Source: Nemertoderma westbladi (lineage: Eukaryota; Animalia; Xenacoelomorpha). Taken from it: DNA of 57,587 nucleotides. Made by a program: the position numbers and the translations under genes. Of the stretch, positions 1-53,522 are shown piece by piece. The stretch covers positions 1 to 57,587 of the forward strand of contig JAUCBJ010008339.1 in assembly GCA_032718475.1 (NCBI GenBank), in the 5' to 3' direction. How positions within the stretch are numbered: position 1 is the first letter of the stretch; every line of letters begins with the position of its first letter. The notes beneath the pieces are model-generated. The model searched no databases. It was not told the DNA's origin and saw only the letters and a program-made list of their open reading frames with translations.

Positions 1-3000
1 TAGACCCTCACACAGACGGAGGAAAGCGCTATAACAGTAGACCCTCACACAGACGGAGGAAAGCGCTATAACAGTAGACCCTCACACAGACGGAGGAAAG
101 CGCTATAACAGTAGACCCTCACACAGACGGAGGAAAGCGCTATAACAGTAGACCCTCACACAGACGGAGGAAAGCGCTATAACAGTAGACCCTCACACAG
201 ACGGAGGAAAGCGCTATAACAGTAGACCCTCACACAGACGGAGGAAAGCGCTATAACAGTAGACCCTCACACAGACGGAGGAAAGCGCTATAACAGTAGA
301 CCCTCACACAGACGGAGGAAAGCGCTATAACAGTAGACCCTCACACAGACGGAGGAAAGCGCTATAACAGTAGACCCTCACACAGACGGAGGAAAGCGCT
401 ATAACAGTAGACCCTCACACAGACGGAGGAAAGCGCTATAACAGTAGACCCTCACACAGACGGAGTAAAGCGCTATAACAGTAGACCCTCACACAGACGG
501 AGGAAAGCGCTATAACAGTAGACCCTCACACAGACGGAGGAAAGCGCTATAACAGTAGACCCTCACACAGACGGAGGAAAGCGCTATAACAGTAGACCCT
601 CACACAGACGGAGGAAAGCGCTATAACAGTAGACCCTCACACAGACGGAGGAAAGCGCTATAACAGTAGACCCTCACACAGACGGAGGAAAGCGCTATAA
701 CAGTAGACCCTCACACAGACGGAGGAAAGCGCTATAACAGTAGACCCTCACACAGACGGAGGAAAGCGCTATAACAGTAGACCCTCACACAGACGGAGGA
801 AAGCGCTATAACAGTAGACCCTCACACAGACGGAGGAAAGCGCTATAACAGTAGACCCTCACACAGACGGAGGAAAGCGCTATAACAGTAGACCCTCACA
901 CAGACGGAGGAAAGCGCTATAACAGTAGACCCTCACACAGACGGAGGAAAGCGCTATAACAGTAGACCCTCACACAGACGGAGGAAAGCGCTATAACAGT
1001 AGACCCTCACACAGACGGAGGAAAGCGCTATAACAGTAGACCCTCACACAGACGGAGGAAAGCGCTATAACAGTAGACCCTCACACAGACGGAGGAAAGC
1101 GCTATAACAGTAGACCCTCACACAGACGGAGGAAAGCGCTATAACAGTAGACCCTCACACAGACGGAGGAAAGCGCTATAACAGTAGACCCTCACACAGA
1201 CGGAGGAAAGCGCTATAACAGTAGACCCTCACACAGACGGAGGAAAGCGCTATAACAGTAGACCCTCACACAGACGGAGGAAAGCGCTATAACAGTAGAC
1301 CCTCACACAGACGGAGTAAAGCGCTATAACAGTAGACCCTCACACAGACGGAGGAAAGCGCTATAACAGTAGACCCTCACACAGACGGAGGAAAGCGCTA
1401 TAACAGTAGACCCTCACACAGACGGAGGAAAGCGCTATAACAGTAGACCCTCACACAGACGGAGGAAAGCGCTATAACAGTAGACCCTCACACAGACGGA
1501 GGAAAGCGCTATAACAGTAGACCCTCACACAGACGGAGGAAAGCGCTATAACAGTAGACCCTCACACAGACGGAGTAAAGCGCTATAACAGTAGACCCTC
1601 ACACAGACGGAGTAAAGCGCTATAACAGTAGACCCTCACACAGACGGAGTAAAGCGCTATAACAGTAGACCCTCACACAGACGGAGGAAAGCGCTATAAC
1701 AGTAGACCCTCACACAGACGGAGGAAAGCGCTATAACAGTAGACCCTCACACAGACGGAGGAAAGCGCTATAACAGTAGACCCTCACACAGACGGAGGAA
1801 AGCGCTATAACAGTAGACCCTCACACAGACGGAGGAAAGCGCTATAACAGTAGACCCTCACACAGACGGAGGAAAGCGCTATAACAGTAGACCCTCACAC
1901 AGACGGAGGAAAGCGCTATAACAGTAGACCCTCACACAGACGGAGGAAAGCGCTATAACAGTAGACCCTCACACAGACGGAGTAAAGCGCTATAACAGTA
2001 GACCCTCACACAGACGGAGGAAAGCGCTATAACAGTAGACCCTCACACAGACGGAGGAAAGCGCTATAACAGTAGACCCTCACACAGACGGAGGAAAGCG
2101 CTATAACAGTAGACCCTCACACAGACGGAGGAAAGCGCTATAACAGTAGACCCTCACACAGACGGAGGAAAGCGCTATAACAGTAGACCCTCACACAGAC
2201 GGAGGAAAGCGCTATAACAGTAGACCCTCACACAGACGGAGGAAAGCGCTATAACAGTAGACCCTCACACAGACGGAGGAAAGCGCTATAACAGTAGACC
2301 CTCACACAGACGGAGGAAAGCGCTATAACAGTAGACCCTCACACAGACGGAGGAAAGCGCTATAACAGTAGACCCTCACACAGACGGAGTAAAGCGCTAT
2401 AACAGTAGACCCTCACACAGACGGAGGAAAGCGCTATAACAGTAGACCCTCACACAGACGGAGGAAAGCGCTATAACAGTAGACCCTCACACAGACGGAG
2501 GAAAGCGCTATAACAGTAGACCCTCACACAGACGGAGGAAAGCGCTATAACAGTAGACCCTCACACAGACGGAGTAAAGCGCTATAACAGTAGACCCTCA
2601 CACAGACGGAGGAAAGCGCTATAACAGTAGACCCTCACACAGACGGAGGAAAGCGCTATAACAGTAGACCCTCACACAGACGGAGGAAAGCGCTATAACA
2701 GTAGACCCTCACACAGACGGAGGAAAGCGCTATAACAGTAGACCCTCACACAGACGGAGGAAAGCGCTATAACAGTAGACCCTCACACAGACGGAGGAAA
2801 GCGCTATAACAGTAGACCCTCACACAGACGGAGGAAAGCGCTATAACAGTAGACCCTCACACAGACGGAGGAAAGCGCTATAACAGTAGACCCTCACACA
2901 GACGGAGGAAAGCGCTATAACAGTAGACCCTCACACAGACGGAGTAAAGCGCTATAACAGTAGACCCTCACACAGACGGAGTAAAGCGCTATAACAGTAG

Positions 3001-6000
3001 ACCCTCACACAGACGGAGGAAAGCGCTATAACAGTAGACCCTCACACAGACGGAGGAAAGCGCTATAACAGTAGACCCTCACACAGACGGAGGAAAGCGC
3101 TATAACAGTAGACCCTCACACAGACGGAGGAAAGCGCTATAACAGTAGACCCTCACACAGACGGAGTAAAGCGCTATAACAGTAGACCCTCACACAGACG
3201 GAGGAAAGCGCTATAACAGTAGACCCTCACACAGACGGAGTAAAGCGCTATAACAGTAGACCCTCACACAGACGGAGTAAAGCGCTATAACAGTAGACCC
3301 TCACACAGACGGAGGAAAGCGCTATAACAGTAGACCCTCACACAGACGGAGGAAAGCGCTATAACAGTAGACCCTCACACAGACGGAGGAAAGCGCTATA
3401 ACAGTAGACCCTCACACAGACGGAGGAAAGCGCTATAACAGTAGACCCTCACACAGACGGAGGAAAGCGCTATAACAGTAGACCCTCACACAGACGGAGG
3501 AAAGCGCTATAACAGTAGACCCTCACACAGACGGAGGAAAGCGCTATAACAGTAGACCCTCACACAGACGGAGGAAAGCGCTATAACAGTAGACCCTCAC
3601 ACAGACGGAGGAAAGCGCTATAACAGTAGACCCTCACACAGACGGAGGAAAGCGCTATAACAGTAGACCCTCACACAGACAGAGGAAAGCGCTATAACAG
3701 TAGACCCTCACACAGACGGAGGAAAGCGCTATAACAGTAGACCCTCACACAGACGGAGGAAAGCGCTATAACAGTAGACCCTCACACAGACGGAGTAAAG
3801 CGCTATAACAGTAGACCCTCACACAGACAGAGGAAAGCGCTATAACAGTAGACCCTCACACAGACGGAGGAAAGCGCTATAACAGTAGACCCTCACACAG
3901 ACAGAGGAAAGCGCTATAACAGTAGACCCTCACACAGACGGAGGAAAGCGCTATAACAGTAGACCCTCACACAGACGGAGGAAAGCGCTATAACAGTAGA
4001 CCCTCACACAGACGGAGGAAAGCGCTATAACAGTAGACCCTCACACAGACGGAGGAAAGCGCTATAACAGTAGACCCTCACACAGACGGAGGAAAGCGCT
4101 ATAACAGTAGACCCTCACACAGACGGAGGAAAGCGCTATAACAGTAGACCCTCACACAGACGGAGTAAAGCGCTATAACAGTAGACCCTCACACAGACGG
4201 AGTAAAGCGCTATAACAGTAGACCCTCACACAGACAGAGGAAAGCGCTATAACAGTAGACCCTCACACAGACGGAGGAAAGCGCTATAACAGTAGACCCT
4301 CACACAGACGGAGGAAAGCGCTATAACAGTAGACCCTCACACAGACGGAGGAAAGCGCTATAACAGTAGACCCTCACACAGACGGAGTAAAGCGCTATAA
4401 CAGTAGACCCTCACACAGACGGAGGAAAGCGCTATAACAGTAGACCCTCACACAGACGGAGTAAAGCGCTATAACAGTAGACCCTCACACAGACGGAGTA
4501 AAGCGCTATAACAGTAGACCCTCACACAGACAGAGGAAAGCGCTATAACAGTAGACCCTCACACAGACGGAGGAAAGCGCTATAACAGTAGACCCTCACA
4601 CAGACGGAGGAAAGCGCTATAACAGTAGACCCTCACACAGACAGAGGAAAGCGCTATAACAGTAGACCCTCACACAGACGGAGGAAAGCGCTATAACAGT
4701 AGACACTCACACAGACGGAGGAAAGCGCTATAACAGTAGACCCTCACACAGACGGAGGAAAGCGCTATGACAGTAGACACTCACACAGACAGAGGAAAGC
4801 GCTATAACAGTAGACCCTCACACAGACGGAGGAAAGCGCTATAACAGTAGACCCTCACACAGACGGAGGAAAGCGCTATGACAGTAGACACTCACACAGA
4901 CAGAGGAAAGCGCTATAACAGTAGACCCTCACACAGATGGAGGAAAGCGCTATGACAGTAGACCCTCACACAGACGGAGGAAAGCGCTATAACAGTAGAC
5001 CCTCACACAGACGGAGGAAAGCGCTATGACAGTAGACACTCACACAGACAGAGGAAAGCGCTATAACAGTAGACCCTCACACAGATGGAGGAAAGCGCTA
5101 TGACAGTAGACCCTCACACAGACGGAGGAAAGCGCTATAACAGTAGACCCTCACACAGACGGAGGAAAGCGCTATGACAGTAGACACTCACACAGACAGA
5201 GGAAAGCGCTATAACAGTAGACCCTCACACAGATGGAGGAAAGCGCTATGACAGTAGACCCTCACACAGACGGAGGAAAGCGCTATAACAGTAGACCCTC
5301 ACACAGACAGAGGAAAGCGCTATAACAGTAGACCCTCACACAGACGGAGGAAAGCGCTATGACAGTAGACACTCACACAGACAGAGGAAAGCGCTATAAC
5401 AGTAGACCCTCACACAGATGGAGGAAAGCGCTATGACAGTAGACCCTCACACAGACGGAGGAAAGCGCTATGACAGTAGACCCTCACACAGACGGAGGAA
5501 AGCGCTATAACAGTAGACCCTCACACAGACGGAGGAAAGCGCTATGACAGTAGACCCTCACACAGACGGAGGAAAGCGCTATAACAGTAGACCCTCACAC
5601 AGACGGAGGAAAGCGCTATAACAGTAGACCCTCACACAGACGGAGGAAAGCGCTATGACAGTAGACACTCACACAGACAGAGGAAAGCGCTATAACAGTA
5701 GACCCTCACACAGACGGAGGAAAGCGCTATGACAGTAGACCCTCACACAGACGGAGGAAAGCGCTATAACAGTAGACCCTCACACAGACGGAGGAAAGCG
5801 CTATAACAGTAGACCCTCACACAGACAGAGGAAAGCGCTATAACAGTAGACCCTCACACAGACGGAGGAAAGCGCTATAACAGTAGACCCTCACACAGAC
5901 GGAGGAAAGCGCTATAACAGTAGACCCTCACACAGACGGAGGAAAGCGCTATAACAGTAGACCCTCACACAGACGGAGGAAAGCGCTATGACAGTAGACC

Positions 6001-9000
6001 CTCACACAGACAGAGGAAAGCGCTATAACAGTAGACCCTCACACAGACGGAGGAAAGCGCTATAACAGTAGACCCTCACACAGACGGAGGAAAGCGCTAT
6101 AACAGTAGACCCTCACACAGACGGAGGAAAGCGCTATAACAGTAGACCCTCACACAGACGGAGGAAAGCGCTATAACAGTAGACCCTCACACAGACGGAG
6201 GAAAGCGCTATAACAGTAGACCCTCACACAGACGGAGGAAAGCGCTATAACAGTAGACCCTCACACAGACGGAGGAAAGCGCTATAACAGTAGACCCTCA
6301 CACAGACGGAGGAAAGCGCTATGACAGTAGACCCTCACACAGACGGAGGAAAGCGCTATAACAGTAGACCCTCACACAGACGGAGGAAAGCGCTATAACA
6401 GTAGACCCTCACACAGACGGAGGAAAGCGCTATAACAGTAGACCCTCACACAGACGGAGGAAAGCGCTATAACAGTAGACCCTCACACAGACGGAGGAAA
6501 GCGCTATAACAGTAGACCCTCACACAGACGGAGGAAAGCGCTATAACAGTAGACCCTCACACAGACGGAGGAAAGCGCTATAACAGTAGACCCTCACACA
6601 GACGGAGGAAAGCGCTATAACAGTAGACCCTCACACAGACGGAGGAAAGCGCTATAACAGTAGACCCTCACACAGACGGAGGAAAGCGCTATAACAGTAG
6701 ACCCTCACACAGACGGAGGAAAGCGCTATAACAGTAGACCCTCACACAGACGGAGGAAAGCGCTATAACAGTAGACCCTCACACAGACAGAGGAAAGCGC
6801 TATAACAGTAGACCCTCACACAGACGGAGGAAAGCGCTATAACAGTAGACCCTCACACAGACGGAGGAAAGCGCTATAACAGTAGACCCTCACACAGACG
6901 GAGGAAAGCGCTATAACAGTAGACCCTCACACAGACGGAGGAAAGCGCTATAACAGTAGACCCTCAGGAAAGCGCTATAACAGTAGACACTCACACAGAC
7001 GGAGGAAAGCGCTATAACAGTAGACCCTCACACAGACGGAGGAAAGCGCTATAACAGTAGACCCTCACACAGACGGAGGAAAGCGCTATAACAGTAGACC
7101 CTCACACAGACGGAGGAAAGCGCTATAACAGTAGACCCTCACACAGACGGAGGAAAGCGCTATAACAGTAGACCCTCACACAGACGGAGGAAAGCGCTAT
7201 AACAGTAGACCCTCACACAGACGGAGGAAAGCGCTATAACAGTAGACCCTCACACAGACGGAGGAAAGCGCTATAACAGTAGACCCTCACACAGACGGAG
7301 GAAAGCGCTATAACAGTAGACCCTCACACAGACGGAGGAAAGCGCTATAACAGTAGACCCTCACACAGACGGAGGAAAGCGCTATAACAGTAGACCCTCA
7401 CCAGACGGAGGAAAGCGCTATAACAGTAGACACTCACACAGACGGAGGAAAGCGCTATAACAGTAGACCCTCACACAGACGGAGGAAAGCGCTATAACAG
7501 TAGACCCTCACACAGACGGAGGAAAGCGCTATAACAGTAGACCCTCACACAGACGGAGGAAAGCGCTATAACAGTAGACCCTCACACAGACGGAGGAAAG
7601 CGCTATAACAGTAGACCCTCACACAGACGGAGGAAAGCGCTATAACAGTAGACCCTCACACAGACGGAGGAAAGCGCTATAACAGTAGACCCTCACACAG
7701 ACGGAGGAAAGCGCTATAACAGTAGACCCTCACACAGACGGAGGAAAGCGCTATAACAGTAGACCCTCACACAGACGGAGGAAAGCGCTATAACAGTAGA
7801 CCCTCACACAGACGGAGGAAAGCGCTATAACAGTAGACCCTCACACAGACGGAGGAAAGCGCTATAACAGTAGACCCTCACACAGACGGAGGAAAGCGCT
7901 ATAACAGTAGACCCTCACACAGACGGAGGAAAGCGCTATAACAGTAGACCCTCACACAGACGGAGGAAAGCGCTATAACAGTAGACACTCACACAGACGG
8001 AGGAAAGCGCTATAACAGTAGACCCTCACACAGACGGAGGAAAGCGCTATAACAGTAGACCCTCACACAGACGGAGGAAAGCGCTATAACAGTAGACCCT
8101 CACACAGACGGAGGAAAGCGCTATAACAGTAGACCCTCACACAGACGGAGGAAAGCGCTATAACAGTAGACCCTCACACAGACGGAGGAAAGCGCTATAA
8201 CAGTAGACCCTCACACAGACGGAGGAAAGCGCTATAACAGTAGACCCTCACACAGACGGAGGAAAGCGCTATAACAGTAGACCCTCACACAGACGGAGGA
8301 AAGCGCTATAACAGTAGACCCTCACACAGACGGAGGAAAGCGCTATAACAGTAGACCCTCACACAGACGGAGGAAAGCGCTATAACAGTAGACCCTCACA
8401 CAGACGGAGGAAAGCGCTATAACAGTAGACCCTCACACAGACGGAGGAAAGCGCTATAACAGTAGACCCTCACACAGACGGAGGAAAGCGCTATAACAGT
8501 AGACCCTCACACAGACGGAGGAAAGCGCTATAACAGTAGACACTCACACAGACGGAGGAAAGCGCTATAACAGTAGACCCTCACACAGACGGAGGAAAGC
8601 GCTATAACAGTAGACCCTCACACAGACGGAGGAAAGCGCTATAACAGTAGACCCTCACACAGACGGAGGAAAGCGCTATAACAGTAGACCCTCACACAGA
8701 CGGAGGAAAGCGCTATAACAGTAGACCCTCACACAGACGGAGGAAAGCGCTATAACAGTAGACCCTCACACAGACGGAGGAAAGCGCTATAACAGTAGAC
8801 CCTCACACAGACGGAGGAAAGCGCTATAACAGTAGACCCTCACACAGACAGAGGAAAGCGCTATAACAGTAGACCCTCACACAGACGGAGGAAAGCGCTA
8901 TAACAGTAGACCCTCACACAGACGGAGGAAAGCGCTATAACAGTAGACCCTCACACAGACGGAGGAAAGCGCTATGACAGTAGACACTCACACAGACAGA

Positions 9001-12000
9001 GGAAAGCGCTATAACAGTAGACCCTCACACAGACGGAGGAAAGCGCTATAACAGTAGACCCTCACACAGACGGAGGAAAGCGCTATAACAGTAGACCCTC
9101 ACACAGACGGAGGAAAGCGCTATAACAGTAGACCCTCACACAGACGGAGGAAAGCGCTATGACAGTAGACCCTCACACAGACAGAGGAAAGCGCTATAAC
9201 AGTAGACCCTCACACAGACGGAGGAAAGCGCTATAACAGTAGACCCTCACACAGACGGAGGAAAGCGCTATAACAGTAGACCCTCACACAGACGGAGGAA
9301 AGCGCTATAACAGTAGACCCTCACACAGACGGAGGAAAGCGCTATAACAGTAGACCCTCACACAGACGGAGGAAAGCGCTATAACAGTAGACCCTCACAC
9401 AGACGGAGGAAAGCGCTATAACAGTAGACCCTCACACAGACGGAGGAAAGCGCTATAACAGTAGACCCTCACACAGACGGAGGAAAGCGCTATGACAGTA
9501 GACACTCACACAGACAGAGGAAAGCGCTATAACAGTAGACCCTCACACAGACGGAGGAAAGCGCTATAACAGTAGACCCTCACACAGACGGAGGAAAGCG
9601 CTATAACAGTAGACCCTCACACAGACGGAGGAAAGCGCTATAACAGTAGACCCTCACACAGACGGAGGAAAGCGCTATAACAGTAGACCCTCACACAGAC
9701 GGAGGAAAGCGCTATAACAGTAGACCCTCACACAGACGGAGGAAAGCGCTATAACAGTAGACCCTCACACAGACGGAGGAAAGCGCTATAACAGTAGACC
9801 CTCACACAGACGGAGGAAAGCGCTATAACAGTAGACCCTCACACAGACGGAGGAAAGCGCTATAACAGTAGACCCTCACACAGACGGAGGAAAGCGCTAT
9901 AACAGTAGACCCTCACACAGACGGAGGAAAGCGCTATAACAGTAGACCCTCACACAGACGGAGGAAAGCGCTATAACAGTAGACCCTCACACAGACAGAG
10001 GAAAGCGCTATAACAGTAGACCCTCACACAGACGGAGGAAAGCGCTATAACAGTAGACCCTCACACAGACGGAGGAAAGCGCTATAACAGTAGACACTCA
10101 CACAGACGGAGGAAAGCGCTATAACAGTAGACCCTCACACAGACGGAGGAAAGCGCTATAACAGTAGACCCTCACACAGACGGAGGAAAGCGCTATAACA
10201 GTAGACCCTCACACAGACAGAGGAAAGCGCTATAACAGTAGACCCTCACACAGACGGAGGAAAGCGCTATAACAGTAGACCCTCACACAGACGGAGGAAA
10301 GCGCTATAACAGTAGACCCTCACACAGACGGAGGAAAGCGCTATAACAGTAGACCCTCACACAGACGGAGGAAAGCGCTATAACAGTAGACCCTCACACA
10401 GACAGAGGAAAGCGCTATAACAGTAGACCCTCACACAGACGGAGGAAAGCGCTATAACAGTAGACCCTCACACAGACGGAGGAAAGCGCTATAACAGTAG
10501 ACCCTCACACAGACGGAGGAAAGCGCTATAACAGTAGACCCTCACACAGACGGAGGAAAGCGCTATAACAGTAGACCCTCACACAGACGGAGGAAAGCGC
10601 TATGACAGTAGACACTCACACAGACAGAGGAAAGCGCTATAACAGTAGACCCTCACACAGACGGAGGAAAGCGCTATGACAGTAGACCCTCACACAGACA
10701 GAGGAAAGCGCTATAACAGTAGACCCTCACACAGACGGAGGAAAGCGCTATAACAGTAGACCCTCACACAGACGGAGGAAAGCGCTATAACAGTAGACCC
10801 TCACACAGACAGAGGAAAGCGCTATAACAGTAGACCCTCACACAGACGGAGGAAAGCGCTATAACAGTAGACCCTCACACAGACGGAGGAAAGCGCTATA
10901 ACAGTAGACCCTCACACAGACGGAGGAAAGCGCTATGACAGTAGACACTCACACAGACAGAGGAAAGCGCTATAACAGTAGACCCTCACACAGACGGAGG
11001 AAAGCGCTATAACAGTAGACCCTCACACAGACGGAGGAAAGCGCTATGACAGTAGACACTCACACAGACAGAGGAAAGCGCTATAACAGTAGACCCTCAC
11101 ACAGACGGAGGAAAGCGCTATAACAGTAGACCCTCACACAGACGGAGGAAAGCGCTATGACAGTAGACACTCACACAGACGGAGGAAAGCGCTATAACAG
11201 TAGACCCTCACACAGACGGAGGAAAGCGCTATGACAGTAGACACTCACACAGACAGAGGAAAGCGCTATAACAGTAGACCCTCACACAGACGGAGGAAAG
11301 CGCTATAACAGTAGACCCTCACACAGACGGAGGAAAGCGCTATAACAGTAGACCCTCACACAGACGGAGGAAAGCGCTATGACAGTAGACACTCACACAG
11401 ACAGAGGAAAGCGCTATAACAGTAGACCCTCACACAGACGGAGGAAAGCGCTATAACAGTAGACCCTCACACAGACGGAGGAAAGCGCTATAACAGTAGA
11501 CCCTCACACAGACGGAGGAAAGCGCTATAACAGTAGACCCTCACACAGACGGAGGAAAGCGCTATGACAGTAGACCCTCACACAGACAGAGGAAAGCGCT
11601 ATAACAGTAGACCCTCACACAGACGGAGGAAAGCGCTATGACAGTAGACACTCACACAGACAGAGGAAAGCGCTATAACAGTAGACCCTCACACAGACGG
11701 AGGAAAGCGCTATAACAGTAGACCCTCACACAGACGGAGGAAAGCGCTATAACAGTAGACCCTCACACAGACAGAGGAAAGCGCTATAACAGTAGACCCT
11801 CACACAGACGGAGGAAAGCGCTATGACAGTAGACACTCACACAGACAGAGGAAAGCGCTATAACAGTAGACCCTCACACAGACGGAGGAAAGCGCTATAA
11901 CAGTAGACCCTCACACAGACGGAGGAAAGCGCTATGACAGTAGACCCTCACACAGACAGAGGAAAGCGCTATAACAGTAGACCCTCACACAGACGGAGGA

Positions 12001-13710
12001 AAGCGCTATAACAGTAGACCCTCACACAGACGGAGGAAAGCGCTATAACAGTAGACCCTCACACAGACGGAGGAAAGCGCTATAACAGTAGACCCTCACA
12101 CAGACAGAGGAAAGCGCTATAACAGTAGACCCTCACACAGACGGAGGAAAGCGCTATAACAGTAGACCCTCACACAGACAGAGGAAAGCGCTATAACAGT
12201 AGACCCTCACACAGACGGAGGAAAGCGCTATAACAGTAGACCCTCACACAGACGGAGGAAAGCGCTATGACAGTAGACCCTCACACAGACAGAGGAAAGC
12301 GCTATAACAGTAGACCCTCACACAGACGGAGGAAAGCGCTATAACAGTAGACCCTCACACAGACGGAGGAAAGCGCTATAACAGTAGACCCTCACACAGA
12401 CGGAGGAAAGCGCTATAACAGTAGACCCTCACACAGACGGAGGAAAGCGCTATAACAGTAGACCCTCACACAGACGGAGGAAAGCGCTATAACAGTAGAC
12501 CCTCACACAGACGGAGGAAAGCGCTATAACAGTAGACCCTCACACAGACGGAGGAAAGCGCTATAACAGTAGACCCTCACACAGACGGAGGAAAGCGCTA
12601 TAACAGTAGACCCTCACACAGACGGAGGAAAGCGCTATGACAGTAGACACTCACACAGACAGAGGAAAGCGCTATAACAGTAGACCCTCACACAGACGGA
12701 GGAAAGCGCTATGACAGTAGACACTCACACAGACAGAGGAAAGCGCTATAACAGTAGACCCTCACACAGACGGAGGAAAGCGCTATAACAGTAGACCCTC
12801 ACACAGACGGAGGAAAGCGCTATAACAGTAGACCCTCACACAGACGGAGGAAAGCGCTATAACAGTAGACCCTCACACAGACGGAGGAAAGCGCTATAAC
12901 AGTAGACCCTCACACAGACGGAGGAAAGCGCTATAACAGTAGACCCTCACACAGACGGAGGAAAGCGCTATGACAGTAGACCCTCACACAGACGGAGGAA
13001 AGCGCTATAACAGTAGACCCTCACACAGACGGAGGAAAGCGCTATAACAGTAGACCCTCACACAGACGGAGGAAAGCGCTATAACAGTAGACCCTCACCA
13101 GACGGAGGAAAGCGCTATGACAGTAGACACTCACACAGAGGAGGAAAGCGCTATGACAGTAGACACTCACACAGACAGAGGAAAGCGCTATAACAGTAGA
13201 CCCTCACACAGACGGAGGAAAGCGCTATAACAGTAGACCCTCACACAGACGGAGGAAAGCGCTATAACAGTAGACCCTCACACAGACGGAGGACAGCGCT
13301 ATAACAGTAGACCCTCACACAGACGGAGGAAAGCGCTATAACAGTAGACCCTCACACAGACGGAGTAAAGCGCTATAACAGTAGACCCTCACACAGACGG
13401 AGTAAAGCGCTATAACAGTAGACCCTCACACCGACAGAGGAAAGCGCTATAACAGTAGACCCTCACACAGACGGAGGAAAGCGCTATAACAGTAGACCCT
13501 CACACAGACGGAGGAAAGCGCTATAACAGTAGACCCTCACACAGACGGAGTAAAGCGCTATAACAGTAGACCCTCACACAGACGGAGTAAAGCGCTATAA
13601 CAGTAGACCCTCACACAGACAGAGGAAAGCGCTATAACAGTAGACCCTCACACAGATGGAGGAAAGCGCTATAACAGTAGACCCTCACACAGACGGATGA
13701 AAGCGCTATA
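1..13710. repeat. 37-bp tandem satellite, about 370 copies, truncated by the window start
   Basis: Unit TAGACCCTCACACAGACGGAGGAAAGCGCTATAACAG repeated head-to-tail with only a few recurrent SNV variants and rare indels; no spacers. Confidence 0.99.
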
Positions 13711-28255: not shown

Positions 28256-29177
28256 CATTATAATATAATGTTAATAATGTATAATTATAGTTTCGTACCC
28301 CTTGATAAAACATTCGACGTATTTTTAGTTTTATTCAGAAAATACTACAAAACCTTACGTTGATTCTGAATCTAAAATAAATTTGTCGATAAGTTGTTTC
28401 GTTTCTCGAGTTATTCCAAATGTGGATCTTTCAACCAAAACCAATTAATCAAAACATCAAAAATACAATAATTTAACAATTTTCATTGTGTTACTTTTGG
28501 TGGTCGATTTTGGACAGTTGACATTAATATTAAACTTTATTTGCATTTTTGCAGACTTTTTCGTACTACTTTACTCAACCGAAGTTCGTTCTGTATTGAG
28601 AAATATACTGCAGTATGCAGAACAAGCCGTGCAAAAAAATTATTATCTATTAAAAATACTTACGGCACTTTTTTTGATATTTTTGGATAATGCTGTACCT
28701 TTTTTTTTGAGATTTTAAAATTCTGTCTATTTCTTTTTAAATAGACAGAAATAGCCCTGCAAAATGAAAAAAAATCAACAAAATTATTAAATCAACAGCT
28801 GTGAACGCCTCGTAAAAGCAAAAAATGTTTGCAAAATTCAGCCTCAGTCCCTACCCCCTTCAAGTTTGGCTTGGCCAGCCTGCCGGTATTCGCATAATAT
28901 CGCAGGTCAAGCATGTATGAATGTAATATTTTCCATTCATTCAATCAATAAATATTATTAAAATAATATTTTAATAATATTACGGAGATGGAAATACACC
29001 TTATATTATAAGGTGACTTATATTGTCGTGCAAAAACATTTCATTGTGTTGGAAATATGCGACAGGGTTGGGAAGGACTGAAATGTACGTAGGAGTTAAA
29101 ATAGTTATACTGTAATACCCGATCAGAGTTTGTTACGATTATTTGAATTTTAAATTAAATATACAAAGTGTAAAAAG

Positions 29178-31509: not shown

Positions 31510-31912
31510 CCTACCGCTAATATTATGGACACGCGGCCACACTGAAAAACCGTGAGACATTTGACGAATTAAGTTTACCAATATATATTATATAACTATA
31601 TACATTATTATAATATACAATTATTTTCTCATCGATTTATTTTTTATTAAAGGGTGGGGGGGGGGGGGGGGGGGGGGGGTACACCATTTTGGTCCAAATA
31701 TGATCAAATATGATCGAGATTATACTGCACGATTAAATGGTGTTTCCAAATCTGAAAACCGCTATTTAATAGCTCTTTTAGTTTTCAAGTTATAACAAAA
31801 AATTTAATCCATTTATAAATTAATTGGAGTTGAGCTGTTAATGCAACTGTAATTAAAGATGTAATATTATGGTTTTGTTCCGAAATGGAAAAAATGAGAA
31901 AGCGCGTCACGC

Positions 31913-31990
31913 GTCACCGGGGGTTCAACCAGCGTTATACGTACGTTTCAGGCCTCATCAGTAGCGCTAACCAGTTCAGCCACTTGCGAC
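31913..31990 (-). ncRNA. tRNA-like (Pol III A/B box) scaffold carrying a hammerhead core (HHR3)
   Basis: Minus strand: GTCGC..TGGCTGAACTGGTTAGCGC-TA-CTGATGA-GGCCT-GAAA-CGTACG-TA-TAACGCT-GGTTGAACCC..GTGAC. This gives an A-box-like motif, HHR core, B-box-like motif and pairing ends. Confidence 0.6.
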
Positions 31991-32046
31991 TTGCCCCTGA
32001 CATTCTCCCACCTAATCCACTTCTATTAAACAGGCAGTCTTAAGTT

Positions 32047-33600
32047 GGCAGTATCAGGAGATAGCAGTGTCAGGAGATGGCAGTGTCAGGAGATGGCAGT
32101 GTCAGGAGATGGCAGTGTCAGGAGATGGCAGTGTCAGGAGATGGCAGTGTCAGGAGAAGGCTCTGTCAGGAGATGGCAGTGCCAGGAGATGGCAGTGTCA
32201 GGATATAGCAGTGTCAGGAGGAGATATCAGTCTCAGGAGATAGCAGTGTCAGGATATGGCAGTGTCAGGAGATGGCAGTGTCAGGAGATGGCAGTGTTAA
32301 GATATGATGGCCGAGTCTGAAGATGGCAGTGTCAGGAGATGGCAGTATCAGGAAATGAAAGTGTCAGGAGATGGCAGTGTCAGGAGATGACAGTATCAGG
32401 AGATGGTAGTGTCAGGAGATGGCAGTGTCAGGAGATGACAGTGTCAGGAGATGGCAGTGCCAGGAGAAGGCAGTAACAGGATATGGCAGTCTCAGGAGAA
32501 GGCTCTGTCAGGAGATGGCAGTGTCAGGAGATGGCAGGGTCAGGATATAGCAGTGTCAGGAGGAGATATCAGTGTCAGGAGATGGCAGTGTCAGGAGATG
32601 ACAGTGTCAGGAGATGGCAGTGTTAAGATATGGCAGTGTCAGGAGATGGCATTGTTAAGAAATGGCAGTGTCCGGAGATGGCAGTGTCAGGAGATGGTAG
32701 TATCAGGAAATGACAGTGTCAGGAGATGGCAGTGTCAGGAGATTGCAGTGTCAGGAGATGGCAGTGCAGGAGATGGCTCTGTCAGGAGATGGCAGTGTCA
32801 GGTGATGCAGTGTCAGGAGATGGCAGTATCAGCAGATGGCAGTATCAGGAGATGGCAGTGTCAGGAGATAGCAGTGTCAAGAGATGACAGATTGGCAGTG
32901 TCAGCAAATGGCAGTGTCAGGAGATGGCATTGTCAGGTGATGGCAGTGTCGGGAGATGGCAGTGTCAAGAGATGGCTCTGTCATGAGATGGCAGTGTCAG
33001 GAGATGGCAGTGTCAGGTGATGGCAGTGTCAGGAGATGGCAGTATCAGGAATTGACAGTGACAGGATATGGCAGTGTCAGGAGATAGCAGTGTCAGGAGA
33101 TGGCAGGGTCAGGAGATGACAGTGTCAGGAGATGGCAGTGTCAGGAGGTGGCAGTGTCAGGAGATGTGGCAGTATCAGGAAATGACAGTGACAGGATATG
33201 GCAGTGTCAGGAGATAGCAGTGTCAGGAGGTGGCAGTGTCAAGAGATGGCAGTGTCAGGAAATGACAGTGACAGGATATGGCAGTGTCAGGAGATAGCAG
33301 TGTCAGGAGATGGCAGTATCAGGAGATGGCAGTGCCAGGAGATAGCAGTGTCAGGAGATGGCAGTATCAGGAGATAGCAGTGTCAGGGGATGACAGTGTC
33401 CGGAGATGGCAGTATCAGGAGATAGCAGTGTCAGGAGATGGCAATGTCAGGAGATGGCAGTGTCAGGAGATGGCAGTGTCAGGAGATGGCAGTCTCAGGA
33501 GATAGCAGTGTCAGGAGATGGCACTGTCCGGAGATGGCAGTATCAGGAGATGGCAGGGTCAGGAGATGGCAGTGTCAGGAGATGGCAGTGTCAGCAGATG
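32047..33600. repeat. Degenerate 16-bp minisatellite (GGCAGTGTCAGGAGAT)n, about 95 copies
   Basis: Period 16 with many substitutions and indels; source of the MAVSGDGSVRRWQCQE ORFs. Confidence 0.96.
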
Positions 33601-49731: not shown

Positions 49732-49920
49732 AAATCAAACAAAACAGACGGAAACCACACCGACTACATACAGTTGCTTATATTTACTCATACTTCCTAT
49801 TTCTACGTTGTAGCTGTAGTAACGGTAGCTGTAGGCCTGCCGACAATAAGACCAAGAAAGATACCGGTACTAGGCCTATACAGTTTTTATCCCTGAGTCA
49901 GACTACAGCCAGACAGCACA

Positions 49921-52900
49921 ATGTCCCCGCTCTTAATCTCCACAGTTTTCATCGTTCTGGGTCGTTTCGTTGTGGCAGAACCATCCGATCCGCGGGGTAA
50001 CCCTGCAACCCACCCAATACCCGTATTGGACTGGTTTGCGGAACACCCTGTCGCTACCGTTTCGAACTGCCGCGCCGAATCGACGGAGATGTGGTCGACG
50101 AGTGGATTTAGCCTCTACTGCTCTCGTCGGGGAAGAAGATCTTGGGTCTCCTCTCCACGATCTAGAGGCCTAATCGCTAAACTCTGTCTACTGTCTCTGG
50201 CTGGGGATATTGAGACCAACCCAGGACCCAGCAGGACGCGGGCCCCGAAGATCAACTGTCCCGTCTGTCAACGAGGAACAAACTCTCGGAGTAAGATCGT
50301 CCAATGCGAGAGTTGTGACACATTTGTACATTTAAAATGTTACCGTAGGAAACGCAGTAATTTATTCTCCACCAGAAACAATCTTGAACCAAGTTTTCTC
50401 TGCAATAGCTGTATTTTTACCGAACTTCCCTTTCATGATACAATTTTAGAATCAGAAACCGACGATTCATTTCTCACATCGCCTCTGCAAACTCCAAGTG
50501 ATGCTGAGAGTGAAACTTTTAATTTTTTTAAGAAAAAAGGTCTGCATTTTTTGCATTTAAACGCACGATCTCTGCTTCCAAAACTTTCCGAAATTCGTAT
50601 TTTAATCAATAAATCCAACCCAGCAGTTTTAACAATCTCTGAAACTTGGCTCGATGATAGTGTTTCTGATGGAGAAATTTATATTGATAATTACGTAGTT
50701 TTACGTAAGGATAGGGACAGACACGGTGGTGGTGTCTGTACTTACATTCGATGTGATTTAGCTTTTAATCGTAGGGAAGATTTAGAGACTTGTGACGAAG
50801 TTTTACTGGTGGAACTTTTACTTCCTAAAACTAAACCTATTTTAATCGGTACTTTATATCGGCCCCCTAAACAATCAGATTTTTTGCAAAATTTTGAAAA
50901 TACAATTTTATGTAATCTTAGGTCAGACTGTGAAATATATTTCTTAGGTGATTTTAATATCTGTTACCATCACAAAGCATCCCCCATCTGTAAACAGTAC
51001 CAAAGTATTTTAAATTTGTTTGGTTTAAAACAAATTATTCGAGATTCTACCAGAATTACCAGTAAAACTTCTACTTTACTAGATCACATCCTTTGTAATA
51101 ATACCGATATTATTTCTCAATCTGGGGTTTTACCTATAGGTCTAAGCGATCATTTTATAGTTTTTTGCACAAGAAAGACACAAAAATCTTTTTTCGGGGA
51201 TCATAAAACAGTAACAGTTAGGTCTATGAAAAATTACAGCAAGGAACGCTTTTTAAGTTTGTTAGTTAATTCTGACTGGGAACCCTGTTTTAAGGCCGCT
51301 GACATTAACCTTGCGTACACTGTTTTTAAAGATATATTTTTAAAGGCACTTAATACTGTAGCACCAATTAAAGAAATTAGTCTTAAACAACGCACTGAGC
51401 CCTGGATGACCTCGGGTATTCTTAGTAATATCAGAGAAAGAGATAACTATTTGTATAAATTTAGGAAATACCGTGTTTTAGCTGATTATAATAATTACTG
51501 CAAATATAGAAACCTTGTCCAACGGGAAATAAAAAAAGCTAAATCTGAATATTTGTACAACAAAATAAGTGAGAATAAAGATAATCCAAAAAGTCTATGG
51601 TCTACCCTAAAATCTTTAGGTTATAAAAACCTTAAATCTAAATCGAATATTGTTCTGCAAGATAACGGTGAGCTGATTCATGATCATACTCTAGTTAGTA
51701 ATTTATTTAATAATTATTTTACTAATGTTGCCTCTAATTTAGTTAAGAGGTTACCGTTATCAAGTAATAAATATAGTATAGGGTCCGAAACTCTAAATAA
51801 TTTTTATTTAGAAAAGTTACAAAATTCAGAAAAGTTATTTTTAAAACCCGTTTCTGAGGATTTCGTTTTTAAAAATCTACTTAGCCTATCAGCCTCAAAA
51901 AGTACCGGTCTAGATCTAATACCTGCCCGTTTTCTTAAGGATGGTGCTGAAGTACTTAAAGTGCCTATTACTTTTATTATTAATTACTCTATCGTAGATA
52001 ATGTAGTACCAGACGAACTGAAATTAGCTAAGGTTGTTCCTCTGTATAAAAAGAATAGTAAAGTAGAACCCTGTAATTACAGACCTGTTAGTATCTTAAG
52101 TATTGTATCTAAAATTCTAGAACGTTCTGTTTTTCTACAGCTGGAGGCACATCTTAGTAGGCTAAATCTGATCTATGAACTTCAGTCCGGTTTTCGTAAA
52201 TCATATTCTACAGACACCTGCCTTATTAACTTAACTGATACAATTAGATGTAATAACGCAAAGGGTTTATATACTGGTATGGTAATGTTGGACCTACAAA
52301 AGGCTTTCGATACTGTAGATCACGAAATTCTGCTTGGTAAGTTAGGCCTGATGGGTGTAGGTTCTATAGACTGGTTCAAGTCCTACCTGTCAGACAGAGG
52401 TCAAACTGTAGTCATTAGCAAATCGCTGTCTACTGTACAAGAGATTACCTGTGGTGTACCGCAAGGTAGTATATTAGGTCCTCTGCTTTTTGTATGCTAT
52501 GTAAATGATATGATAAGTAGTATAGATCCCGATTTTAAACTCATTTTATATGCCGACGACAGTGCTCTTATTTTCTCTCATAAAGATCCTATCCATATTT
52601 CCCAAAAGTTAAGTGCAGTTCTAGAATCCTGTAATGAGTGGTTGGTTGATAATAAGCTATCCATTCAAGATAGTAAAACTGAAGGTATTGTGTTTGGTTC
52701 CAAAAGAAAGTTAAAGAAGGTAACTAAGTTTGAAGTCACTAGTAATGGACATAAGATTGAAAATAAAAAGGAAGTTAAATATTTAGGCGCCACATTGGAT
52801 AACTGCTTATCAGGAGAAAGTACAGTGAAAAATATTTTCTCGAAAGTTAACAATAGGCTTAGGTTTCTATACAGAAATAAAAATAGTTTGAACACCGACT

Positions 52901-53310
52901 CCCGCAAGTTACTTTGCTCTTCTTTAATACAATGTCACATGGACTATGCGTGCTCTTCTTGGTATGAAGGCTTAACCAAACAGCTTAAATGTAAATTACA
53001 AGTAGCTCAGAATAAAGTAGTACGATTTATTAAAGACTACAAACCTAGGCACCACCTAACTCCAGATGACTTTTCTGAATCTGGACTACTTAACTTAGAT
53101 AGTAGAGTTAAGCAGCTACGCCTTAACCATGTGCATAAAGTGTATAATGGTAAATGTCCCAATTACCTAAAACAAAAATTCAACAGAGTACGCGATACAC
53201 ACTCTTACAGTACCAGAGCTAGTGCTTCAAACTTCTACCTCCCGAATTGTAAATCCTTTGAATCTGATACTTTCTTTTTTAACGGCATAAAAAATTGGAA
53301 CGCTCTGTGA
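49921..53310 (+). CDS. CR1-group (CR1/L2/Crack-like) LINE polyprotein: leader, 2A-like peptide, PHD finger, APE endonuclease, reverse transcriptase
   Basis: 1129-aa open frame with [14 protein letters not shown]; CPVC..CESC..H..C..CNSC; HLNARSL, ISETWL, GDFN, LDHI, SDH; [34 protein letters not shown]; it ends at WNAL. Confidence 0.97.
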
Positions 53311-53444: not shown

Positions 53445-53522
53445 CTCTCGTGGCGTAGTGGTCAGATGGTTAAGGCGTTGGTTACATTACATAGGTTACG
53501 AGTTCGAATCCCAGTCGGGAAA
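53445..53522 (+). other. tRNA-derived module (A box and B box) inside the LTR
   Basis: TGGCGTAGTGG at 53451, GTTCGAATCCC at 53502, and acceptor-like pairing TCTCG/CGGGA. Confidence 0.65.

Follow-up and report, generated by a model that had tools for sequence, protein, structure and literature searches.

Hammerhead repeats, repeats with tRNA-derived promoters and Penelope derivatives are each known, and the Sm-alpha repeat joins the first two side by side. Sm-alpha and Sj-alpha of Schistosoma are, as far as the accounts drawn on here describe them, high-copy repeats that combine a tRNA-derived Pol III promoter with a type I hammerhead ribozyme (PMC6765202, PMC2770079, PMC8490949). In the layout given second-hand for Sm-alpha the promoter is followed by the ribozyme and the units stand in tandem (PMC6765202), and Sm-alpha-like copies are reported to be called tRNA-Gln by tRNAscan (PMC2770079), so that the anticodon arm should be intact there. 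Animal non-LTR retrozymes are described as non-coding, a few hundred nucleotides long and equipped with a canonical type I hammerhead (Cervera and de la Pena, 2020, PMC7229834). Penelope elements are their proposed mobilisers (Li et al., 2026, bioRxiv 10.64898/2026.07.22.740005), and the same preprint carries the argument that animal retrozymes derive from the pLTRs of PLEs. Retrozymes are defined by tandem units and circular RNA, and the portions of these two descriptions used here mention no tRNA-derived promoter (PMC7229834; bioRxiv 10.64898/2026.07.22.740005). In the Penelope/Poseidon pLTR, as exemplified by PAc of Anolis, the hammerhead is reported about 100 nt upstream of the 3' end, targets are AT-rich and inverted 5'-truncated arms occur (PMC11167929, PMC8557442, PMC4209133). 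Internal tRNA boxes are described for Helenus TRIMp3, a non-autonomous element that bears tRNA-derived A and B boxes inside its repeat and not at the 5' end; it is of LTR type, with PBS, PPT and 4-5-bp target duplications, and is described without a ribozyme (Kojima, 2024, PMC10886601). Finally, in engineered tRNA-Val-ribozyme cassettes an internal tRNA promoter is reported to drive a hammerhead RNA (PMC2704196).

Here we describe a repeat of Nemertoderma westbladi, first seen in a stretch of 57,587 nucleotides (contig JAUCBJ010008339.1 of assembly GCA_032718475.1, hereafter the window), in which a hammerhead motif is nested between the A and B boxes of a tRNA-derived scaffold. It shares the ingredients of Sm-alpha, with the difference that the ribozyme takes the place of anticodon and variable arms and that the two boxes complement each other. 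Engineered cassettes include ribozyme insertions in the anticodon loop; these cassettes are artificial and trans-acting, whereas the repeat is natural, predicted to be cis-acting and present in high copy. Tandem units, which define the retrozymes, were not seen for the repeat; from metazoan pLTRs, whose hammerheads are minimal, it differs by its flanking tRNA boxes and by having no visible ORF. A search of mainly open-access literature, outside Repbase and Dfam, found no natural hammerhead between A and B boxes. Kojima has pointed out that a SINE would be truncated by a ribozyme lying behind its head (PMC5786205, as far as drawn on here), and nesting raises the same problem.

Materials and Methods

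Family data come from contigs of this organism in four public DNA runs (X1 to X4; three samples from three studies), aligned to window positions 31690-32045; some of these contigs derive from a neighbouring repeat at 31714-31797. The hammerhead descriptor was composed after the element had been seen. The tRNAs used as comparators are viral and were chosen by a 15-letter motif of the D-arm region. For the opposite-strand joints, the identity of each arm was read from the lengths of the two sides, and the joint of 31855 to 32043 permits one reading only.

Results and Discussion

The features of the window copy are collected in Table 1. All motifs named in the sequence-only reading were found on the minus strand where it had placed them, and the elements CUGANGA, GAAA and NUH stand in type I order. 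Helix III consists of 2 bp and a tetraloop and forms a perfect 8-nt palindrome (31946-31939); given the position of the GUA triplet, the predicted cut falls between 31938 and 31937. A type I hammerhead descriptor gave a single match in the window, at the element of 31913..31990, while local shuffles of the last 43.6 kb yielded 0.045 descriptor sites per shuffle and a match with both boxes in 0 of 200. The description of the core as full does not hold for this copy: just 5 nt separate CUGAUGA from GAAA, so helix II is essentially absent. Rfam models, by which the presence of a tRNA and a hammerhead was to be checked, gave no tRNA or hammerhead match (whole window, E up to 1; 31800-32100, E up to 10), and ARAGORN found 0 tRNA genes in the window. 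Judged by its sequence, the window copy is probably inactive, having lost helix II and one B-box base. Families of this kind get missed because a copy such as this one scores with neither Rfam nor ARAGORN.

Table 1. Features of the repeat copy in the window, in transcript order (window positions; - is the minus strand)
Feature	Position	Strand	Remarks
Whole repeat copy present	31816..32047	-	From depth and loose ends; some other copies reach further upstream
Upstream block	32008..32047	-	Non-coding as far as seen; depth about 160,000 in X1, equal to the ribozyme block
7-nt duplication-type insertion	31984..31990	-	Placement ambiguous within 31982-31994
Remnant of tRNA positions 8-25	31964..31982	-	A box at 31982-31972
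Helix I, 5' strand	31962..31968	-	Starts at tRNA position 21; 6/7 pairs in window copy
Catalytic core CUGAUGA	31955..31961	-	From sequence; no majority change among run contigs
Helix II remnant	31950..31954	-	About 8 nt lost in window copy
GAAA, helix III and GUA triplet	31938..31949	-	GAAA 31949-31946; GUA 31940-31938
Helix I, 3' strand	31931..31937	-	Pairs with 31968-31962; overlaps 5' side of T arm
B box	31920..31930	-	Degenerate at 31926 in window copy; GTTCRA intact in family
T6 run, Pol III terminator-like	31889..31894	-	Only run of at least four T in the element
AT-rich 3' tail	31816..31888	-	71% A+T; ends about 120 nt after predicted cut

The window is repeat-rich DNA with large satellites, among them a 37-bp satellite at 1-13710 (at least 370 copies, 98% match). 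At its 5' end the element adjoins a 16-bp minisatellite (32046-33600, 97 copies) that shares a short inverted word with the element's 5' region, possibly by chance, and at its 3' end it adjoins the sequence at 31714-31797, which is part of another very abundant repeat and has consistent loose ends at either side. No second copy of the element was found within the window; an 18-nt match at 29074-29091 (E 0.14-0.38) was rejected as one, being without core or boxes nearby. On the minus strand at 16354-16320 a CUGAUGA...GAAA core with a plausible helix II lies beside a 46-bp satellite and fails the helix I descriptor.

The runs show that the repeat is a multi-copy family, as the sequence-only reading had supposed, with 1,353, 2,188, 1,266 and 111 aligned contigs in X1 to X4; a single-copy sequence, or a consensus that loses boxes or core, would have spoken against that reading, and neither was found. 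The summed depth of the core is about 4,300, 3,600, 5,300 and 100 times the median depth of the listed contigs longer than 300 nt (X1 to X4), a ratio that leaves out one X1 contig of depth 134 and is no copy number; the family likely comprises thousands of copies. Both the B box and the hammerhead come out better in the majority letters: that at 31926, with 99.7-100% of depth in the four runs, brings back GTTCRA in the B box, and the one at 31935 (94-99.7% of depth) gives helix I 7/7 Watson-Crick pairs. At 31950 the depth in X1 drops to 3,408, compared with about 150,000 at adjacent positions, and in all four runs the loose-end consensus before 31948 carries about 8 extra bases (agreement 0.60-0.68). 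Read by eye from these loose ends and the majority letters, the family helix II would have 4-5 bp with a loop of 3-5 nt; no listed contig piece covers it entire. Read in this way, the family appears to carry a type I hammerhead motif of canonical form, flanked by the A and B boxes. Its helix sizes, by this by-eye reading, agree with those reported for the canonical type I hammerheads of metazoans (about 6 bp in helix I and about 4 bp in helix II; PMC4209133, as far as drawn on here), which helix II of the window copy does not. A helix III of 2 bp with a tetraloop is described for invertebrate retrozymes that cleave well as monomers (PMC7229834).

The location of the ribozyme between the A and B boxes, proposed from the sequence of the window copy, is borne out by the coordinates and by the intact boxes of the family. 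Compared with the consensus sequences given in PMC7954030, the A box agrees with TRGYNNARNNG, and the family B box matches 10 of the 11 letters of RGTTCRANTCC. The boxes derive from tRNA, and the 15-letter motif falls in an ARAGORN tRNA at 70 of 118 viral loci. An isotype could not be assigned, the motif-bearing tRNAs being Ile (43), Met (10), Asn (7), Asp (6), Gln (2) and Lys (2). The distance from T8 to G53 is 46 nt in tRNAs, 53 in the window copy and about 61 in the family, and the spacing between A and B boxes is described as variable (PMC7954030). By contrast, little of the cloverleaf is left. The ends had been noted to pair, and 31990-31986 and 31917-31913 do so at 5/5 positions, but it is the 7-nt insertion that makes these pairs, and this is absent from most copies (93%, 89%, 66% and 35% of spanning depth in X1 to X4); a 7-nt stretch at 31903 is also frequently missing among the family contigs. 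The D stem has 2/4 canonical pairs in the window copy, compared with 3-4/4 in 53 of 53 comparator tRNAs, and the T stem keeps 3/5, so that acceptor, D, anticodon and T stems do not make up the cloverleaf of a functional tRNA gene.

In place of these stems, the two boxes complement each other. A-box positions 12-16 and T-loop positions 57-53 form 4/5 pairs in the window copy and 5/5 with the majority letter, whereas the same pairing amounts to 2-3/5 in all 53 comparator tRNAs; positions 12, 13 and 16 differ from tRNAs and create the complementarity. Because of this complementarity the RNA likely folds as an extended hammerhead and not as a cloverleaf, to judge from pair counts made by eye, and the A-box/B-box helix would extend helix I past an internal loop. 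Such an arrangement fits the contact between loop 1 and loop 2 that type I hammerheads are reported to need (PMC6155905, as far as drawn on here). In the damaged window copy neither fold is favoured: the constrained cloverleaf lies at -10.1, the constrained hammerhead at -10.8 and the MFE at -17.4 kcal/mol, and a rod with the A box paired to the B box lies 0.5 kcal/mol above the MFE. The earlier proposal of two alternative folds, one of them a cloverleaf, finds no backing in a copy-specific acceptor stem, a D stem of 2/4, a T stem of 3/5 and an A box complementary to the B box.

The absence of a tRNA model match, together with the fact that RNA pairing alone could conserve the boxes, would suit an ordinary hammerhead repeat whose helix I flanks merely resemble boxes, or carry relic boxes without TFIIIC binding. 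We consider this most improbable, in view of the 15-letter D-arm match, a B box placed 53 nt (about 61 in the family) downstream as compared with 46 in tRNAs, a T6 run in the expected place and a value of 0.0002 for random sites with both boxes. That the family consists of active Pol III genes, in which the hammerhead stands where the anticodon arm was and the rewired boxes pair as an extension of helix I, we put forward only tentatively and hold to be somewhat unlikely. If true, one sequence would be a promoter in DNA and a catalytic scaffold in RNA.

The extent of the element bears on the question of whether it is a SINE. The 3' boundary at 31815-31816 is marked by varied flanks (agreement 0.43-0.45, median loose length up to 255 nt) and the 5' boundary at 32046-32047 by loose ends with an agreement of 0.52-0.58. 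All eight listed pieces that bear on it (8/8) run from the ribozyme into the upstream block, so defined, and the unit reaches at least 55 nt upstream and about 70 nt beyond T6. T6 lies 43 nt past the predicted cut and is kept in the family (loose-end consensus before 31910, agreement 0.78); Pol III is reported to stop at five or more T (PMC7954030). The flank of the element has 85% A+T, no target-site duplication longer than a 5-mer was found around the window copy, and by analogy with PAc the 3' tail is likely the region where reverse transcription starts.

A classical tRNA-headed SINE, whose Pol III transcript begins at the tRNA start and switches between cloverleaf and hammerhead, and which a LINE mobilises, would account for several of these traits. 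Both boxes, as in SINE2 elements derived from tRNA, are present and intact in the family, the 3' end is AT-rich, five of seven inverted joints (see below) lie near tRNA position 1, and the window holds a LINE-type ORF that looks intact (49897-53310, plus strand; 1,137 codons open, with PHD finger, endonuclease and RT). However, the tRNA head is not the 5' end of the element, since 32008-32047 joins it at equal depth, with only a subset of arms starting at the head; the acceptor stem belongs to particular copies, and neither the D nor the T stem is intact; the tail has no match to the end of the window LINE, and no duplication exceeds a 5-mer. The inverted arms come from the 3' part of the repeat, and LINE twin priming gives inverted arms unlike these. 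To our knowledge, tRNA-derived SINEs have no internal Pol III terminator, a rule that the T6 of the repeat breaks. A SINE of this classical kind is thus very unlikely. Of the SINE-like character first proposed, the tRNA boxes, the multiple copies and the T6 that follows them stand; the start of the unit upstream of the head, its passage through T6 and its Penelope-type inverted joints do not fit, and the repeat is no plain SINE. Right after the LINE, at 53451-53511 (plus strand), there is a second A box/B box pair without hammerhead core, likely an ordinary tRNA-headed SINE.

At least seven opposite-strand joints were seen in the run contigs, six among the 15 listed of 24 in one alignment and one in another, each being one contig per run with a depth of 7-108. 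In these joints a sense arm is joined to an inverted one that represents the 3' part of the element itself, with truncation points scattered over 31855-31942. Inverted 5'-truncated arms are described for PLE insertions (PMC8557442, as far as drawn on here), and opposite-strand hammerhead pairs are a known feature of PLE remnants; the joints suggest, from their sequence, Penelope-type copying. In PAc the start of reverse transcription is internal to the RNA and lies about 85-92 nt past the site of hammerhead cleavage; its targets are rich in A+T, the main template is uncleaved RNA and insertion in vitro needs no cleavage (PMC11167929). The repeat resembles PAc in that its 3' end lies about 120 nt after the cut, next to the A+T-rich flank, and no pile-up of contig ends was found at the predicted cut site. 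In three runs the depth at 31870-31893 is near twice that of the ribozyme block, which may reflect extra short 3' arms in many insertions or a segment common to another repeat. No Penelope ORF (RT with GIY-YIG) was found in the window, Pfam matched 0 of 71 further frames and the sole RT is that of the LINE.

Five of the seven sense arms start at 31985-31987 (tRNA positions 3-5). The probability of this clustering is about 4e-4, a post hoc value that takes a 23-nt window for alignment breakage, and breakage at the divergent stretch 31988-32007 may inflate the count. This is a hint of Pol III initiation there followed by read-through of T6, or else of stalling at the hairpin base.

The joints would also fit a repeat that is the pLTR of a protein-coding PLE, with the short copies as its 5'-truncated insertions and the boxes lying inside the pLTR. 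In this respect the depth of the upstream block, which equals that of the ribozyme, and the at least 27 contigs that extend past 32046-32047 (in two listed loose-end rows) agree with it. We nevertheless regard it as unlikely: a single frame translated across 31934-32071 has 6 stops, which leaves the upstream block unsupported as the end of a PLE ORF, and by eye there is no long frame after the core. Moreover, canonical hammerheads are reported for retrozymes and not, in the accounts drawn on here, for metazoan PLE pLTRs (PMC4209133, PMC7229834).

A further reading is a non-LTR retrozyme, for which tandem units would be transcribed, cut and ligated into circles that rejoin the boxes, with dispersed monomers as by-products. 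A canonical type I hammerhead and a unit of at least 230 nt, which fits the reported range of 170-400 nt (PMC7229834), are what this predicts, and the monomer share is described as spanning 0 to 1 among retrozyme families (bioRxiv 10.64898/2026.07.22.740005). Against it, the window locus has a single unit with no second one nearby, the 3' flanks vary, and head-to-tail joints number 0 among the 15 listed of 24, in contigs that are short. A retrozyme is on these grounds distinctly unlikely.

The reading that we prefer, to which we give about an even chance of being right, is a non-autonomous, Penelope-mobilised repeat with a nested hammerhead, whose boxes would be a Pol III promoter in DNA and a helix in RNA. 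As DNA, the boxes would bind TFIIIC, and Pol III would start near 31989 and stop at T6, giving a transcript about 100 nt long. As RNA, the A and B boxes would pair to form the outer part of helix I, whose internal loop would dock on loop II, and the molecule would not adopt a tRNA fold but cleave itself after GUA. The source of new genomic copies would be longer transcripts that stay uncleaved and pass T6, made by Pol II from upstream or by Pol III read-through; their reverse transcription would begin in the 3' tail and insert them into AT-rich DNA, and a second arm, inverted and 5'-truncated, would often be added. Against this reading, T6 is at odds with templates made by Pol III, although most inverted joints start at the tRNA head, and metazoan PLEs are reported usually to bear minimal and not canonical hammerheads (PMC4209133).

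Nesting makes promoter and ribozyme the same nucleotides, and therefore cleavage would destroy the promoter of any copy made from the product. If the family does consist of active Pol III genes, as put forward tentatively above, cleavage would split the promoter, only uncleaved RNA would found new promoter-bearing copies, and the hammerhead would be a built-in brake on a Penelope-parasitic element. The repeat also offers a compact test of the role of the hammerhead in Penelope-type and retrozyme cycles, given that insertion in vitro proceeds without cleavage (PMC11167929).

Pattern searches for relatives in metagenome and viral contigs gave 0 stretches with A box plus core; core plus B box gave 25 metagenome loci and 0 viral ones, with an A box or more than one helix I pair in 0 of the 25. 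Because these collections are mostly microbial, the searches say little on animals. Four of the metagenome loci (L006, L008, L014 and L022, at about 57-114) share the same hammerhead, apparently of type III, with a helix II of 4 bp or more; all four lie right at the beginning of their contigs, which belong to one metagenome, and are perhaps RNA-virus or viroid-like ends.
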